Below, in pieces: positions 32,720 through 64,000 of a stretch of 64,000 bases of DNA. Origin of the DNA: an uncultured Chloroflexia bacterium (lineage in GTDB: Bacteria; Chloroflexota; Limnocylindria; Limnocylindrales; CSP1-4); NCBI GenBank assembly GCA_963817745.1, contig CAWFPC010000008.1:432-64431 (forward strand), given 5' to 3'. The notes below the pieces were generated by a model. That model worked only from the letters and a program-made list of their open reading frames with translations, was not told the DNA's origin and made no database searches. Positions within the stretch are counted from its first letter, which is position 1; each line of letters opens with the position of its first letter. A program made the position numbers and the translations under genes.

Positions 32720-33706
32720 CGGCTCGCCGCGGCCGCCGTGGCGGCCGTTCCAACCAGGGCGGTTTCCTCAACGGTGCCGTCCGCCGGATCGCCTCGTCCG
32801 GCGTCCTCCGCCTCCGCGGCCAATCGATCCGCGGCCTCGAGCGCATCGTTCGGATCGGCGAGGACCAGCGCCTCGATCAGCTGGGCGGCCCCTTCGTCCT
32901 CGAGCGGCGGCGCGATGTAGCGGGCCGCGGCGCGCACGCCGGCAGGCGCCGTGGGCATCGCCGCGCCGTGCCCGACCTCGGCGAGCATCTCGACATCGTT
33001 CCACTGGTCGCCGATCGCCAGCGTCGCGCCGAGCGGGATCCCCAGGCGTCGCGCCAGCCAGCGGATGGCCCGGCCCTTCGACACGCCCGGCGCCACGAAC
33101 TCCAGGAATCGCGGGTGCGAGATCGTCACGTCCGCCACCCCATCGAACGCCGCGCGCGCGAGTGCGGCCATCTCGGTCGGGAGCGGCGGCTCGCCGACGG
33201 CGAGCACCTTGGTCACCGGGTGGGCGATCGCGCTCGCCAGGTCGGGGACGAGCTCGGCGCGGGCGCCCATGAACGCGGAGTAGTCGTCGGCGTTCGGGTC
33301 GTCGGCGCGGACGATGAACCGCTCGAGGTGGTTCATGTGCGGATCGAGGCCGTGCTCCTTGGTCCAGGCGACGATGGCGCGCGCGGTCGCCGCGGGCAGC
33401 GGCGTGTGGACGAGCAGCCGACCGACGCGTCCCGAGCCCGGGACGGGCATGGCGCGGATGATCCCGCCCTGGTAGCCGACGAGCGGCCCGGTCAGCCCGA
33501 GCTCGACGGCGAACCGCATGGCACTCGACACCATCCGTCCGGTCACGAGCGACACCGCCACGTCGCGTGCCATCGCGGCTCGCACCGCGGCGATCGTGCG
33601 TGGCCCGATGACGTGGTCGTCGCCGATGATCGTCCCGTCGATATCGAGCGCGATGAGCCTGATCGGGAACTGGGGCGCGCGCGCTCCGGGGGAGTCGATC
33701 GGTCAT
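32716..33706 (-). CDS. Cof-type HAD-IIB hydrolase (5' frameshift)
   Basis: [16 protein letters not shown]...[16 protein letters not shown]. Confidence 0.9.
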
Positions 33707-34611
33707 GGCGTGGGCCCGCGGGTCACGACGGCGACCCGCGGCAGACCGGCGAGGTCGGCCTCGACCCGGCACGACCAGCCGGCCAGCCGCTCCCCGACCA
33801 GCGCGCCGATCGCCGTCCCCTGGTCCGCGCCGATCTCCAGCAGGGCGACGCCGTCGGGCGAGAGGACGCCCGGCAGTCGATCGAGCAATCGTCCGATGAC
33901 GGCCAGCCCGTCCGGCCCGCCGTCGAGGGCGAGTGCCGGTTCGTAGGTCGTCGGCAGCGGGAGCGAGGCCATCGCGTCCTCGCGGACGTACGGCAGGTTC
34001 GCGGCCACGACGTCCCACGGGCCGGCAGCCTGCGGCGGGACGAGGTCGGCGCCGACGAAGCGCATGCGATCGCCGACCGCGTGGCCGACCGCGTTCTCGC
34101 GCGCGAGATCGAGCGCCTCCGGTGAGATGTCGACGGCCGTGATCTCGACGTCCTCGGGGCCGACGCCGCCGCCGACGAAGCTCCGAGGCGATCGTCACCG
34201 CGATCGCGCCGCTGCCCGTGCCGACATCGATGAGCCGCACCCCCGGTCCGCCAAGCGGCCGCGCCCCGGACGTGAGCCGTCGCATGGTCTCGGCCAGCGC
34301 GAGATCGACGAGCAGCTCGGTCTCGGGACGGGGGATCAGGGCACGCGGATCGACGGCGAAGGCCAGGCCGTGGAATTCCTTGAACCCGCGGATGTAGGCG
34401 ACGGGCTCGCCCGCCACGCGGCGATCGAGCGACGCCCGGTACGCGGCCGCGGCGTCTGCCCCGACCGGGGCGTCCGGGTGCGCGACGATCGCGGTCCGGT
34501 CCACGCCGACGGCGAAGCCCAGCAGCAGCTCGGCATCGAGCCGTGGCGTGTCGACCTCGGCCGTGCGCAGCCGGTCGATGCCCTCGTGCAGCAGCTCCTG
34601 GTCGTCGGCAT
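33703..34611 (-). CDS. prmC: Release factor glutamine methyltransferase (frameshifted)
   Basis: RLDAELLL, RRVAGEPVAYIRG, ALIPRPETE, DVGTGSGAIA, ANLPY, ALDGGPDGL. Confidence 0.95.
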
Positions 34612-59677: not shown

Positions 59678-59735
59678 CACGCTCGGTCTCGTGCGGGAGG
59701 GTCGCGCGGCGACCTCGCCTATACTTCACCGTCCC

Positions 59736-62700
59736 ATGAAGTTCCTCTCCCGTTTCGTCGACTCGAACGACCGCGAGATCCGACGCATCCAGCCGCTGGT
59801 CGACGAGGCCAACGCGCTCGAGGCCGAGTTCGAGGCCCTGTCCGACGACGCGATCCGCGCCCAGATCGACGACATCCGGACCGAGATCCACGAGCAGGCC
59901 AAGCCCGACGAGCCGTCCGACGACGAGCTGCACCATCCTGACCTCGAACGCCGCCGCGAGCTGAAGAAGGCGCGCCGCAAGCGCGAGAACGAGCGCCTGC
60001 AGGCGGCCCTCGACGACGTCCTGCCCGAGGTCTTCGCGATGACCCGCGAGGCCATGAAGCGGACGCTCGGGATGCGCCACTTCGACGTGCAGTTCATCGG
60101 TGGCGCCGTCCTCCACCAGGGCAAGATCGCCGAGATGCGCACCGGCGAGGGCAAGACCCTCGTCGCGCCGCTGGCCGCGATCCTCAACTCGCTCACCGGT
60201 CGCGGGGTCCACGTCGTGACGGTGAACGACTACCTCGCCCGGCGCGACCCGCAGTGGATGGGGCCCATCTTCCATTTCCTCGGCGTCAGCGTCGGGATGA
60301 TCACCCACGACGCGTCGTTCGTGTTCGAGCCGGGCCACCCCACCAACGACGAGCGGCTCATCAACCTGCGCCCGGTGACCCGTCGCGAGGCCTACGCCGC
60401 TGACGTGACGTACGGCACGAACAACGAGTTCGGATTCGACTACCTGCGCGACAACATGGTCCTCGAGCTCGACCAGCGGGTCCAGCGCGAGCGCAGCTTC
60501 GCGATCGTCGACGAGGTCGACAACATCCTCATCGACGAGGCGCGCACCCCGCTCATCATCTCGGGCCAGGCCGAGGAGTCGGCCGACCTGTACTTCACGT
60601 TCGCGCGCCTCGTGCCGCGGCTGAAGGAACGGCCCGAGGGCGCCGAGGAGGGCGGTGACTACTTCATCGACCTGAAGGACCGCGCCGTCAGCCCGACCGA
60701 GATCGGCATCGACAAGATGGAGGGGTTCCTCAACGTCGAGAACCTCTACGACGCCGACCCGCGGCTGGCGCGCCACTTCGAACAGGCCCTCCGCGCCCAT
60801 GCGCTGTACAAGCGCGACCGCGACTACATCGTCAAGGACGGCGAGATCGTCATCGTCGACGAGTTCACCGGTCGCCAGATGCCCGGCCGCCGCTGGAGCG
60901 AGGGCCTCCACCAGGCGATCGAGGCGAAGGAGGGCCTGCGCGTCCAGCGCGAGAGCGTGACCCTCGCGACGATCACGTTCCAGAACTACTTCCGGCTGTA
61001 CGACAAGCTGTCCGGGATGACCGGTACGGCGATGACCGAGGCCGAGGAGTTCTTCAAGATCTACAACCTCGAGGTCGTCGCGGTGCCGACCCATCGCGAC
61101 ATGATCCGCGACGACTTCGCGGACCTCGTGTTCCGCGATGAGAACGCCAAGTTCAACGCGCTCATCGACGAGGTCGTGGAGATGCAGGAGGCCGGTCGGC
61201 CGGTCCTCGTCGGCACCGTCTCGGTCGAGAAGTCCGAGATCCTCTCGACGATGCTCAAGCGGCGCGGCATCAGGCACGAGACGCTGAACGCCAAGTTCCA
61301 CGAGAAGGAATCGGGCATCGTCGCGCAGGCGGGGCGCACCGGCGCGGTGACGATCGCCACGAACATGGCCGGCCGCGGCACGGACATCCTGCTCGGCGGC
61401 AACCCGGCCGGGCTCGCCTCCGAGGCGCTCCACAAGCGGGGGCTCAATCCGGCCGAGGTGGACGCCGCCACCATGGAGGCCGCCCTCGCCGAGGCGAAGG
61501 CCGAGACCGAGGCGGAGCACGTCCAGGTGGTCGATGCCGGCGGGCTGCACATCATCGGCACGGAGCGCCACGACTCGCGCCGCATCGACAACCAGCTCCG
61601 CGGCCGGGCGGGCCGCCAGGGCGACCCCGGGTCGTCGCGCTTCTACCTCTCGCTCGACGACGACCTCATGAAGCGCTTCGCCAGCGACCGCGTGACCGGG
61701 CTCATGGAACGGCTCGGGCTCGACGACGACGTCGCGATCGAGTCGAAGCTCGTGTCGCGCACGATCGAGAGCGCCCAGTCCCGTGTCGAGGGCTTCAACT
61801 TCGACATCCGCAAGCGCGTCGTCGAGTTCGACGACGTCATCAACAAGCAGCGCGAGACGATCTACGCCGAACGCGACAAGGTCCTCCACAACGAGGACCT
61901 GACCGAGACGGTCCAGACGTTCATCGACGACGAGATCGATGCGATCGTGGCGGCCGACCTCGCCGGCGACGATCCCGAGGCGTGGAACCTCGAAGGCCTC
62001 GCTGCCGCGCTCAACGCGATGGGCCTGTCGGGCGAGGGGACGACCCCCGACGAGCTGTGGGACATCGGTGGCCGCGAGGCCATCGCCGAGCACCTGCGCG
62101 AGCTCGCGGACGCGAAGCTCGCCGCCCGCGAAGCGGAGGTCGGTGCCGCCGACTGGGCACAGGTGGAGCGCGTGGTGCTGGTGCGGACCATCGATTCGCT
62201 GTGGGTCGAGCACCTGACCGAGCTCGACGACATGCGCCGCGGTATCGGCCTGCGCGGATATGCCCAGCAGGACCCGCTCAACGAGTTCCGGCGCGAGGCG
62301 TTCCGGATGTACGAGGAGTTCCGCGACCTGATCCGTCACGGCGTGGCCACCTCGGTCTTCCGGGTCACGGTCCAGCGCCAGCCGCCGCCGGGCGGGGACG
62401 CCGCCGTCGCGCAGTCGCTCGCACGCGGCGCGGCCGCGCTCCGTGCCGGCGCGACCAACGGCAGCGGCAACGGCGCCGATGGAGCGGGTACCGCCGGTGG
62501 CGCCGGTGGCGCCGCGCCACAGCCCGTGGCCGCGGTCGCGGGGTCCGCCATCCTTCGCGGCTCCCTGCCGACGGAGCCAAAGGTCCGGAACGTGCGCGAG
62601 TCGCTCGGCGACCAGCCGCTGCCCGGCGCGGGCGGTGCGTCCGCGGGCGGGGCTGCCGGCGGGGCGGGTGGCGACGCGCGGCCCGGCTATACGCCGACAG

Positions 62701-62774
62701 GGGAGCGGATCGGGCGGAACGACCCGTGCTGGTGCGGGTCGGGCGCCAAGTACAAGAAGTGCCACGGCCGCTGA
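59736..62774 (+). CDS. secA: Protein translocase subunit SecA
   Basis: EMRTGEGKT, DEVDNILIDEARTP, ATNMAGRGTDI, RIDNQLRGRAGRQGDPG, SEC-C CWCGSGAKYKKCH; start MKFLSRF with TATACT upstream. Confidence 0.99.
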   Translation: MKFLSRFVDSNDREIRRIQPLVDEANALEAEFEALSDDAIRAQIDDIRTEIHEQAKPDEPSDDELHHPDLERRRELKKARRKRENERLQAALDDVLPEVFAMTREAMKRTLGMRHFDVQFIGGAVLHQGKIAEMRTGEGKTLVAPLAAILNSLTGRGVHVVTVNDYLARRDPQWMGPIFHFLGVSVGMITHDASFVFEPGHPTNDERLINLRPVTRREAYAADVTYGTNNEFGFDYLRDNMVLELDQRVQRERSFAIVDEVDNILIDEARTPLIISGQAEESADLYFTFARLVPRLKERPEGAEEGGDYFIDLKDRAVSPTEIGIDKMEGFLNVENLYDADPRLARHFEQALRAHALYKRDRDYIVKDGEIVIVDEFTGRQMPGRRWSEGLHQAIEAKEGLRVQRESVTLATITFQNYFRLYDKLSGMTGTAMTEAEEFFKIYNLEVVAVPTHRDMIRDDFADLVFRDENAKFNALIDEVVEMQEAGRPVLVGTVSVEKSEILSTMLKRRGIRHETLNAKFHEKESGIVAQAGRTGAVTIATNMAGRGTDILLGGNPAGLASEALHKRGLNPAEVDAATMEAALAEAKAETEAEHVQVVDAGGLHIIGTERHDSRRIDNQLRGRAGRQGDPGSSRFYLSLDDDLMKRFASDRVTGLMERLGLDDDVAIESKLVSRTIESAQSRVEGFNFDIRKRVVEFDDVINKQRETIYAERDKVLHNEDLTETVQTFIDDEIDAIVAADLAGDDPEAWNLEGLAAALNAMGLSGEGTTPDELWDIGGREAIAEHLRELADAKLAAREAEVGAADWAQVERVVLVRTIDSLWVEHLTELDDMRRGIGLRGYAQQDPLNEFRREAFRMYEEFRDLIRHGVATSVFRVTVQRQPPPGGDAAVAQSLARGAAALRAGATNGSGNGADGAGTAGGAGGAAPQPVAAVAGSAILRGSLPTEPKVRNVRESLGDQPLPGAGGASAGGAAGGAGGDARPGYTPTGERIGRNDPCWCGSGAKYKKCHGR

Positions 62775-62787
62775 CCCGCCGTCGCGA

Positions 62788-63393
62788 ATGGGGATCGTCA
62801 CTCGTCTGCTCGTCCTGGCCACCGTCTCCGGCATCGCCGTCGCCGGCTATACGACGTACCGCATCTGGGAGCAGGGCGGTCGCGACGAGCAGCGACCCGC
62901 CGACGCCATCGTCGTGATGGGTGCCGCCCAGTACGACGGGCGACCCTCCCCGGTCTTCGCGGCCCGACTGGATCACGCCGTGGAGCTGTATCGCGCGGGC
63001 GTGGCGCCGCGGCTCGTGGTCACGGGCGGCAAGGCCGACGGCGACCGGACGACCGAAGCCGCCTCGGCCCGTGACTACGCGATCGCCCGGGGCGTGGACC
63101 CCGACGACATCCTGGTCGAGGACCGCAGCCGGACCACCCTCGAGTCGATCCGCGGTGTGTCCGCGCTGATGAGCGAGGCACAGCTCTCGAGCGCGGTGTT
63201 CGTGAGCGACCCCGCGCACATGCTCCGCGTGCTGCGGATGGCCGGCGACGCCGGGATCACGGCCTGGGGCTCGCCGACCCGCACGAGCCCGATCGACGCC
63301 GATCCGGTCGCGACGGTCGATGCCGTCATCCACGAGCTCGGCGGGCTTGCCGCGTACCTGCTGGGTGGCGGCACCGTCCTCCGGGGGTCCTGA
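62788..63393 (+). CDS. YdcF/ElyC/SanA (DUF218) family protein
   Basis: N-terminal TM; ADAIVVMGAA..., ARLDHA, VTGG, TEA, EDRSRTTLES, SDPAHMLR. Confidence 0.9.
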   Translation: MGIVTRLLVLATVSGIAVAGYTTYRIWEQGGRDEQRPADAIVVMGAAQYDGRPSPVFAARLDHAVELYRAGVAPRLVVTGGKADGDRTTEAASARDYAIARGVDPDDILVEDRSRTTLESIRGVSALMSEAQLSSAVFVSDPAHMLRVLRMAGDAGITAWGSPTRTSPIDADPVATVDAVIHELGGLAAYLLGGGTVLRGS

Positions 63394-63441
63394 CAGGGCT
63401 CCTCCGAGCCCGCCGCGCACGCATCCAGCACGGATTCGCGC

Positions 63442-63480
63442 ATTTCCCCCCTTGGCGGGGGGAGATTGGCCCTGTACACT
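63442..63480 (+). promoter_or_regulatory. Sigma70-type promoter with palindrome centred on the -35
   Basis: TTGGCG-N17-TACACT; ATTTCCCCCC/GGGGGGAGAT inverted repeat (63442-63466) flanks the -35. Confidence 0.7.
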
Positions 63481-63575
63481 GTGCCAAAACCTGTCGCTCC
63501 GGACCGCTCGTGCTCCCACGACAGGTAGCTCTCAGCCCGTCGCCAGTGCCCAGCGCCGTACAGAGAGGTAGCACG

Positions 63576-63800
63576 TTGAAGCAGGCCGAGGACGCAGCGT
63601 TCGTCGATCTCATCGCCTGTGAACGTGATTGCCGGAATTGCAGCTACGCAGCTGCACTCGACTGCGACGGCAACTGCGGTGTCTGCCCCCACAACGGCTA
63701 CTGTCCGTGCGTGAACCCCGTCGTCGCTCGGAGCAAGACGGCCCTGCGGCTCATCGAGCTGCGGCCCATCCTGCTCCAGGATCTGCAGGGCCGGAACTAG
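63576..63800 (+). CDS. Small cysteine-rich protein, 74 aa, tandem CX3CX2C motifs
   Basis: GAGAGG RBS + TTG start; CERDCRNC-X7-CDGNCGVC-X5-CPC; stop abuts the prfB start. Confidence 0.75.
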   Translation: MKQAEDAAFVDLIACERDCRNCSYAAALDCDGNCGVCPHNGYCPCVNPVVARSKTALRLIELRPILLQDLQGRN

Positions 63801-64000
63801 GTGGACGCGTCCGCCGTCCGCGACCTGGCCGAACGGATCCGATCGACCTCGGGGCGTCTTTGACCTCGAGGCCAAGGCAGAGCGAGTCAGCCAGCTCGAG
63901 ACGCTGACCCAGGAACCAGGGTTCTGGGACGACCAGCGCGGCGCCCAGAAGGTCCTGCGCGAGGCCAACGACCTCCGGTCCGAGATCGACACGTGGGGTG
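63801..64000 (+). CDS. prfB: Peptide chain release factor 2, 5' part, with programmed +1 frameshift
   Basis: 20 codons to CTT TGA C; the +1 frame continues DLEAKAERV...EPGFWDDQRGAQ; follows secA as in many Terrabacteria. Confidence 0.93.
63851..63864 (+). other. RF2 programmed +1 ribosomal frameshift site
   Basis: GGGG-CGT-CTT-TGA-C: SD-like G run 3 nt before the slippery CTT-TGA. Confidence 0.92.

Follow-up and report, generated by a model that had tools for sequence, protein, structure and literature searches.

What is a cysteine-rich reading frame of 74 codons doing immediately in front of prfB, the gene for release factor 2 (RF2)? In the usual account, the supply of RF2 and termination at UGA depend on nothing but the frameshift feedback within prfB; here an abundant class of soil bacteria places an eight-cysteine (Cys8) protein that belongs to no named family ahead of this gene. 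We examined the locus in a 64,000-nucleotide stretch of a contig from the class Limnocylindria, referred to here as the window, together with its relatives. The original prediction had described a 74-aa ORF with a TTG start, a Shine-Dalgarno (SD) sequence and eight Cys and one His within 31 residues, preceded by a promoter and ending in a TAG immediately before the prfB GTG. All of these features were confirmed, and their coordinates are listed in Table 1.

Table 1. Position of the small Cys8 gene (mini ORF), its signals and its neighbours in the window
Feature	Position	Strand	Remarks
secA	59691..62774	+	translation; context
DUF218 (YdcF-like) gene	62443..63393	+	PF02698, E 7e-30, residues 154-300; upstream context
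Promoter-like TTGGCG-17 nt-TACACT for the mini-ORF/prfB transcript	63452..63480	+	TTGGCG 63452-63457, TACACT 63475-63480
Putative stem-loop of the 5' leader, outer arms CCTGTCG ... CGACAGG, GGAC/GTCC-type hairpin inside	63490..63525	+	near the predicted mRNA 5' end
Shine-Dalgarno GAGAGG of the mini ORF	63563..63568	+	7 nt upstream of TTG
Cys8 mini-protein gene, 74 codons + TAG	63576..63800	+	predicted first cistron of the prfB operon; start TTG 63576, stop TAG 63798-63800
Cys-rich core, residues 15-45	63618..63710	+	C15 C19 C22 C30 C34 C37 C43 C45; presumed metal-binding module
12-mer CCCCGTCGTCGC, codons 47-51	63716..63727	+	frozen synonymous sites
Junction TAG/GTG, mini ORF stop abutting prfB start	63798..63803	+	read from sequence
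prfB ORF0, 20 codons (VDASAVRDLAERIRSTSGRL) then TGA	63801..63863	+	start GTG 63801
SD-like GGGG	63851..63854		upstream of CTT TGA C
+1 frameshift site CTT TGA C	63858..63864		end of ORF0
prfB main frame after +1 shift	63862..64000	+	continues past the window end; RF2 = 376 aa in all
RF-1 domain (PF00472) of prfB	C8:64899-65231		contig coordinates

The product of the mini ORF (MKQAEDAAFVDLIACERDCRNCSYAAALDCDGNCGVCPHNGYCPCVNPVVARSKTALRLIELRPILLQDLQGRN) carries its cysteines in the spacing C-x3-C-x2-C-x7-C-x3-C-x2-C-x5-C-x-C, all of them, like its only His, within the core. The promoter-like pair lies about 95 nt upstream of the ORF and is conserved in relatives as TTGGCG-N17-TATACT with a conserved CCCTC upstream; in the window it agrees with the consensus at only 8 of 12 positions, which is why a consensus scanner misses it. 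No terminator-like site was found in 63250-64000, and as the stop of the mini ORF abuts or overlaps prfB, the transcript must run on into prfB. We picture the mini ORF as the first cistron of a transcript that would comprise promoter, leader, mini ORF and prfB. The gene order is secA, DUF218, mini gene, prfB, an ORF of unknown function, ftsE, ftsX, an S41 peptidase gene and smpB, and the series secA ... prfB - ftsE - ftsX - S41 peptidase - smpB is a classic neighbourhood. The DUF218 gene probably starts downstream of the first position given in the table. The ORF between prfB and ftsE (324-384 aa; L126:1377-2480 (+), contig C8 ~65376-66479) had no Pfam match.

A high-GC genome with many spurious ORFs, together with the lack of a database family match, would be compatible with there being no gene here: the prfB leader might contain only an RNA element, or a frame kept open by GC content. 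The substitution pattern rules this out, with dS at ~0.65-1.2 and dN at ~0.03. Pairwise dN/dS was ~0.05 in the clade of the query (0.02 in the Cys core) and 0.02 in a second group, clade 3 (0.01 in the core). An SD sequence, GAGG or GGAG placed 6-9 nt upstream of the start, is present in all 30 of 30 relatives, eight Cys are invariant across the clades, and metagenomic copies run into the thousands. The absence of a gene thus has practically no probability left, and on these comparisons of sequence the frame is confirmed as a genuine protein-coding gene.

The mini protein falls into three clades that are only 43-65% identical to one another, plus one low-GC outlier, its most divergent member. 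Clade 1 is the query type of 74 aa, clade 2 comprises proteins of ~97-108 aa with a P/T/S-rich insert after MKQL, and clade 3 proteins of 65 aa begin MKEWIVCEDNC... and end in a basic RPRKR tail. Residues C15, C22, C30, G32, C34, C37, C43 and C45 are invariant across the three clades, and C19, E16, Y24, L28, D31, P38 and P44 are nearly so. The single His is replaced by Arg in clades 2 and 3, and it is therefore not a conserved ligand.

We then determined how widely the gene occurs. Among 251 genomes of the class, each at least 85% complete, it was found in 234 and in 53 of the 55 genera, as a single copy in all carriers except one (G543, two matches). Of the 17 genomes that lack it, 13 come from a single genus whose genomes measure 1.0-1.4 Mb. 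All 24 genomes of the same genus as the window carry it, at 91-97% identity. In a phylum-wide sample of 401 genomes, all strong matches (42/42) fell in the window's own class, and the weak matches elsewhere were a related module in another Chloroflexota genome (G055) and an unverified match in G354. A protein collection yielded 434 close relatives, none of them with a family name, and when 1.84 billion cluster representatives were searched exhaustively with HMMER, only 61 belonged to the mini protein. Outside Limnocylindria, the Cys8 module was found only as two singleton fusions. By these counts the mini gene truly belongs to the core genome of the Limnocylindria (Chloroflexota), a class of uncultivated soil bacteria.

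The original prediction had recognised no family, and our searches agreed with it. Scans of Pfam and NCBIfam with the 74-aa and 96-aa versions gave no match at E<=1, sequence searches of the PDB with a single sequence and with a profile gave chance matches only, and a Foldseek search of the PDB with the AlphaFold2 model gave no match. A literature search on prfB, upstream ORFs and cysteine-rich proteins returned nothing relevant. The family is thus undescribed in the libraries and literature searched. AlphaFold2 reached a pLDDT of 43.9 with 17 aligned sequences and 52.2 with 97, both of low confidence; the helical C-terminus that had been claimed reappears only as a prediction at this level. 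Given the low pLDDT and the missing fold match, no cofactor or interface has structural support.

What the cysteines might hold was approached by comparison with known proteins. A ferredoxin, a radical SAM enzyme and a WhiB protein resemble the mini protein in local Cys spacings and Cys-Pro pairs. The radical SAM motif CX3CX2C, as claimed earlier, does occur twice (C15-x3-C19-x2-C22 and C30-x3-C34-x2-C37), but at 74 aa the protein is too short for the barrel of a domain of ~200 or more aa, and neither Radical_SAM nor Fer4 was matched. The CX2CX2CX3CP spacing of 2x[4Fe-4S] ferredoxins is absent from the mini protein, which also has no sequence relative in the PDB. The stretch C34-x2-C37-x5-C43 recalls WhiB, but the G[VI]WGG turn (GVWGG) is absent, as is a match to Whib (PF02467). 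Likenesses to CDGSH proteins, metallothioneins and RiPP precursors, noted by eye, were dropped for want of a profile match; the conserved aromatic residues and the absence of a nearby maturase also spoke against them. From their number and conservation, the eight cysteines probably bind metal, either as two Zn(Cys)4 sites or as Fe-S.

The position of the gene was as constant as its sequence. In all 112 full loci checked, among them 30 loci of the class and 80 clade-3 metagenome loci, the mini gene lies directly 5' of the prfB frameshift site, and so it does in the low-GC outlier. The two genes abut (TAG/GTG, TGA/GTG, TGA/ATG), overlap by 1 nt (TAGTG, TGATG) or are separated by a spacer that is usually 15 nt or shorter; longer overlaps, in which prfB starts within the mini ORF, amount to 11 nt in clade 2 (cTTGGACGCAATTAA) and 27 nt in the outlier. 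Exceptions are rare, namely a distance of 24 nt (L167), one unresolved case (L173) and two in-frame fusions. The recurring C-terminal 'GRN' of the mini protein is the other-frame reading of the M-D-A/E-I start of prfB. The original prediction had proposed to compare cysteine conservation, the fixed stop-start contact and dN/dS across the clade, and all three turned out in its favour: the cysteines are invariant or nearly so, the contact is conserved class-wide and dN/dS is as low as given above.

It had also stated that the prfB GTG has no separate SD, which is close to what we measured: an SD exists and is weak. Across 77 loci, the median anti-SD duplex energy was -3.5 kcal/mol at prfB, against -6.8 at the mini ORF and -1.8 for a random in-ORF background. 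Among other Chloroflexota, one prfB (L125) has a clear AAGGAG before its ATG, and another (L124) has an SD of -3.3 kcal/mol, no better than the Limnocylindria starts. The locus thus has the two marks of a coupled first cistron, a stop near or overlapping the downstream start and a downstream start with no effective SD. Coupled translation is the natural reading of the conserved contact and the SD-poor prfB, and translation of prfB probably depends on the mini ORF. The stop codon of the mini ORF varies among TAG, TGA and TAA, so that no RF1- or RF2-specific logic is conserved; on this ground we rejected the idea of an RF1-specific stop (UAG before prfB). A read-through fusion in the window, where the TAG is in frame with the GTG, was likewise rejected, as the two frames differ by 1-2 nt in many relatives.

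Downstream of the junction, the autoregulatory frameshift that had been recognised earlier is fully present. ORF0, its SD-like element and the CTT TGA C site are conserved in every relative examined, and they correspond to the canonical +1 frameshift autoregulation of prfB (CUU UGA C with an upstream SD-like element). The difference from the canonical case lies in front of it. In Limnocylindria an ORF0 of 20-22 codons appears to be entered from a preceding conserved cistron and not from its own ribosome-binding site; one lineage has ORF0 fused to the protein encoded ahead of it. Because prfB has a weak SD and starts inside the mini ORF or only a few nt from its end, ribosomes finishing the mini ORF probably re-initiate on ORF0. 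They would then reach the ordinary RF2-sensing +1 frameshift 20 codons further on. If ribosomes come to prfB by way of the mini ORF, the mini protein would be made at least as often as RF2.

Such an arrangement could also serve a sensing leader: depending on cysteine, metal or redox conditions, the Cys-rich ORF would be translated or folded differently, and this would tune the number of ribosomes that reach prfB. The SD-poor prfB with its start touching the mini ORF stop would suit this explanation, as would eight Cys codons in 31. Termination-reinitiation leaders (ATGA, TGATG, TAATG) and the secM-secA pair share with our locus the stop/start contact, the SD-poor downstream start and the secA/prfB neighbourhood. 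The mini product differs from reinitiation and regulatory leaders in being itself under extreme purifying selection (dN/dS 0.02-0.05) and more conserved than the downstream RF2. Its non-Cys residues are as conserved as the Cys, unlike in attenuation leaders.

Constrained synonymous sites in the 3' third of the ORF would also suit a sensing leader, as they hint at a function of the RNA near the junction. Synonymous codons 46-50 (GTG AAC CCC GTC GTC) are frozen in 69-77 of 77 sequences per codon. Within the 12-mer, CCC and the second GTC are the same in 77/77 and the first GTC in 76/77, and other Pro and Val codons vary. The frozen positions fall in CCCCGUCGUCGC, and dS is 0.37 over the last 28 codons versus 1.23 over the core. 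RNAalifold pairs the 12-mer region with 63844-63854, CCCCG..GUCG with CGAC..CGGGG, at the frameshift SD-like element. We rejected this long-range helix, which would join codons 47-51 to the GGGG of the frameshift site: all its pairs are invariant, so that covariation is lacking, its energy is at z ~-1.5 relative to shuffled sequences, and clades 2 and 3 have nothing comparable.

The leader upstream of the ORF contains a putative two-tier stem-loop whose arms, compared by eye, change on both sides between relatives, CCTGTCG/CGACAGG versus CCCGCCG/CGGCGGG in the outer tier and GGAC/GTCC versus GGGC/GCCC versus GGATC/GATCC in the inner tier. RNAalifold returned no consensus for it from a gappy alignment. 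A motif, TGCCCAGC, is conserved upstream of the mini ORF SD in the leaders of L009-L088. An Rfam search of 63300-64000 gave nothing above chance, and neither a terminator nor an alternative hairpin system was found in the leader. Compared with leaders of the secM-secA type, the mini ORF has no known arrest motif or alternative RNA structure. Control of RF2 by metal would also, to our knowledge, be without precedent and without a physiological rationale. The original prediction had suggested that the supply of RF2 responds to metal, redox or cysteine; this found no direct support, and we consider a sensing leader improbable; conservation, fusion and evolutionary rate point instead to a protein partner.

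The first of these lines of evidence, the near-invariance of non-Cys residues, was described above, and the second is a natural fusion. In two independent short-read metagenome assemblies, the mini ORF is fused in frame and without a stop to ORF0 of prfB. The two come from different samples and have different upstream DNA and different start codons. The fused sequence reads ...RPRKR-CR-MALDP...VFL*, with an intact RF2 frame after the shift. Such fusions are rare (2 of 82 clade-3 loci). They imply that RF2 tolerates the Cys8 domain on its N-terminus, which is tolerance and not binding. A further apparent fusion in a divergent clade-1-like sequence (P0135; L219:2440-2570) was set aside as a probable assembly artefact, because its long-read contig has evident indels, including one extra G in ORF0, and a fragmented secA.

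The third line is the rate of change. Within families the mini protein is 86-97% identical and RF2 67-75%, so that the smaller protein evolves more slowly; between families the two diverge about equally, at 43-65% and 50-63% identity. Taken together, the near-invariant non-Cys residues, the natural fusion and the slower evolution than RF2 fit a protein partner better than a sensing leader. The reading that we put forward, tentatively and from sequence comparison, is a first cistron whose product would bind metal, whose translation would bring ribosomes to prfB and which may be a partner of RF2. The partnership taken by itself is a possibility to which we give slightly less than an even chance. 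In this mechanism the product would act with RF2, binding the N-terminal side of RF2 or the terminating ribosome, and would not be an unrelated passenger. In a more specific version, which appears doubtful at present, RF2 would have in the Cys8 protein a dedicated accessory subunit whose action depends on metal or redox state and which modulates UGA termination or the frameshift feedback.

The same adjacency and coupling would fit a passenger as well, that is, a housekeeping small Zn or Fe-S protein that happens to be the first cistron and is linked to RF2 by co-expression only. Coupled, overlapping cistrons are common in bacterial operons, and Cys8 modules do occur in contexts other than RF2. 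In G055, a related module with the spacing C-x5-C-x2-C-x9-C-x3-C-x2-C-x5-C-x-C ... NP forms the N-terminus of a ParB_N-HTH protein. A clade-3-like module forms the C-terminus of a 188-aa protein (L220:588-1154 (+)) that does not adjoin prfB and lies behind a sigma-like gene. The module is therefore not intrinsically RF2-specific. The HxxxCxxC anti-sigma-like segment to which this second module is attached can be taken in favour of a sensing leader. No relatives of either fusion were found among 5.8 billion proteins, and both are singletons.

Some details of these two proteins were recorded in passing. The ParB_N-HTH protein has 321 aa and lies on a 3-kb contig (L127:310-1275 (-)). The N-terminal segment of the L220 protein contains HLRDCERC and is ZAS-like; its gene overlaps the stop of the upstream gene, whose sigma-70 matches are sub-threshold (E 0.003).

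The passenger explanation also draws on the small-genome genus (L119-L123, genomes G025-G030), in which the Cys core is absent and RF2 is kept. The loss extends to the whole genus, and the mini protein is therefore not an obligate cofactor of RF2. In these genomes secA lies directly upstream of prfB, and the spacer of ~100 nt holds an upstream ORF (uORF) of 16-18 codons (at about positions 1380-1440 of each oriented locus). Its stop overlaps the prfB GTG as GTGA in 4 of 5 loci, and the fifth (L119) has a spacer of 3 nt after the stop. The uORF of one lineage (L123) starts GTG AAG CAG (MKQ) and keeps the 12-mer (P=0.004). The MKQ start, the 12-mer and the stop/start overlap together suggest that the Cys core was probably deleted and upstream translation into prfB kept; the vestigial overlap is also what a sensing leader would retain. 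The L123 uORF (VKQQSPVVALERPSERPW) is a probable deletion remnant of the Cys8 gene.

Against a mere passenger stands the adjacency to prfB, which holds without a break in the low-GC outlier as well as across clades with only 43% identity. The in-frame fusion to an essential RF2 in two samples likewise speaks against it, and a protein that changes more slowly than RF2 within families and jumps between them shows the pattern expected of co-adapting partners. We therefore regard the passenger as a rather unlikely explanation and keep to the first cistron that partners RF2.

Small proteins tied to RF2 are known from ribosome rescue: ArfA (E. coli), BrfA (B. subtilis) and ArfT (Francisella) are small RF2-dependent rescue factors. 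Like the mini protein they are small (40-75 aa), lineage-restricted and genetically tied to RF2, and an analogue that recruits RF2 to non-stop ribosomes would also agree with the basic RPRKR tail of clade 3 and with the absence of an ArfB-type third RF-1-domain gene from this 68%-complete genome. However, the mini protein has no sequence similarity to them and no Pfam or NCBIfam family, clades 1 and 2 lack a basic tail, and its Cys8 cluster and fixed position before prfB are foreign to the known rescue factors, which have no Cys cluster. ArfA and BrfA are made from truncated non-stop mRNA under tmRNA control, whereas the mini gene has a normal stop of its own and is coupled to prfB. With the SmpB gene only a few genes downstream, a rescue factor is very unlikely.

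Another likeness in kind is the small zinc-binding protein Trm112. It activates Mtq2, the methyltransferase for the eukaryotic and archaeal release factor. Both are small, Cys-rich proteins of a release-factor pathway that bind metal, presumably so in the case of the mini protein. Trm112 differs in having one 4-Cys Zn site and a methyltransferase as its partner, and the mini protein has another Cys pattern and no match to PF03966. The bacterial methyltransferase that acts on RF1 and RF2 is encoded by prmC, which here lies ~30 kb from the mini gene, beside prfA.

Were the mini protein to bind RF2 or the terminating ribosome, it would be a new accessory factor of termination, possibly tied to metal or redox state. 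As a true accessory subunit, it would be without precedent: ribosome rescue apart, no protein cofactor restricted to one lineage would have been found before for a class-I release factor in bacteria. If it binds neither, the locus would still show cleanly how, in nature, the synthesis of an essential translation factor can be made to depend on an upstream cistron. The mini protein also offers a new compact Cys8 module for structural study.

The RF1 gene (prfA) and its adjacent prmC homologue are found ~27-30 kb upstream of the mini ORF. The prmC homologue (window 33703-34504 (-)) bears either an assembly indel or a disruption: its match to TIGR03534 is split between two frames, with model positions 1-111 (106 bits) in one piece, 91-252 (102 bits) in the other and a TGA between the pieces.
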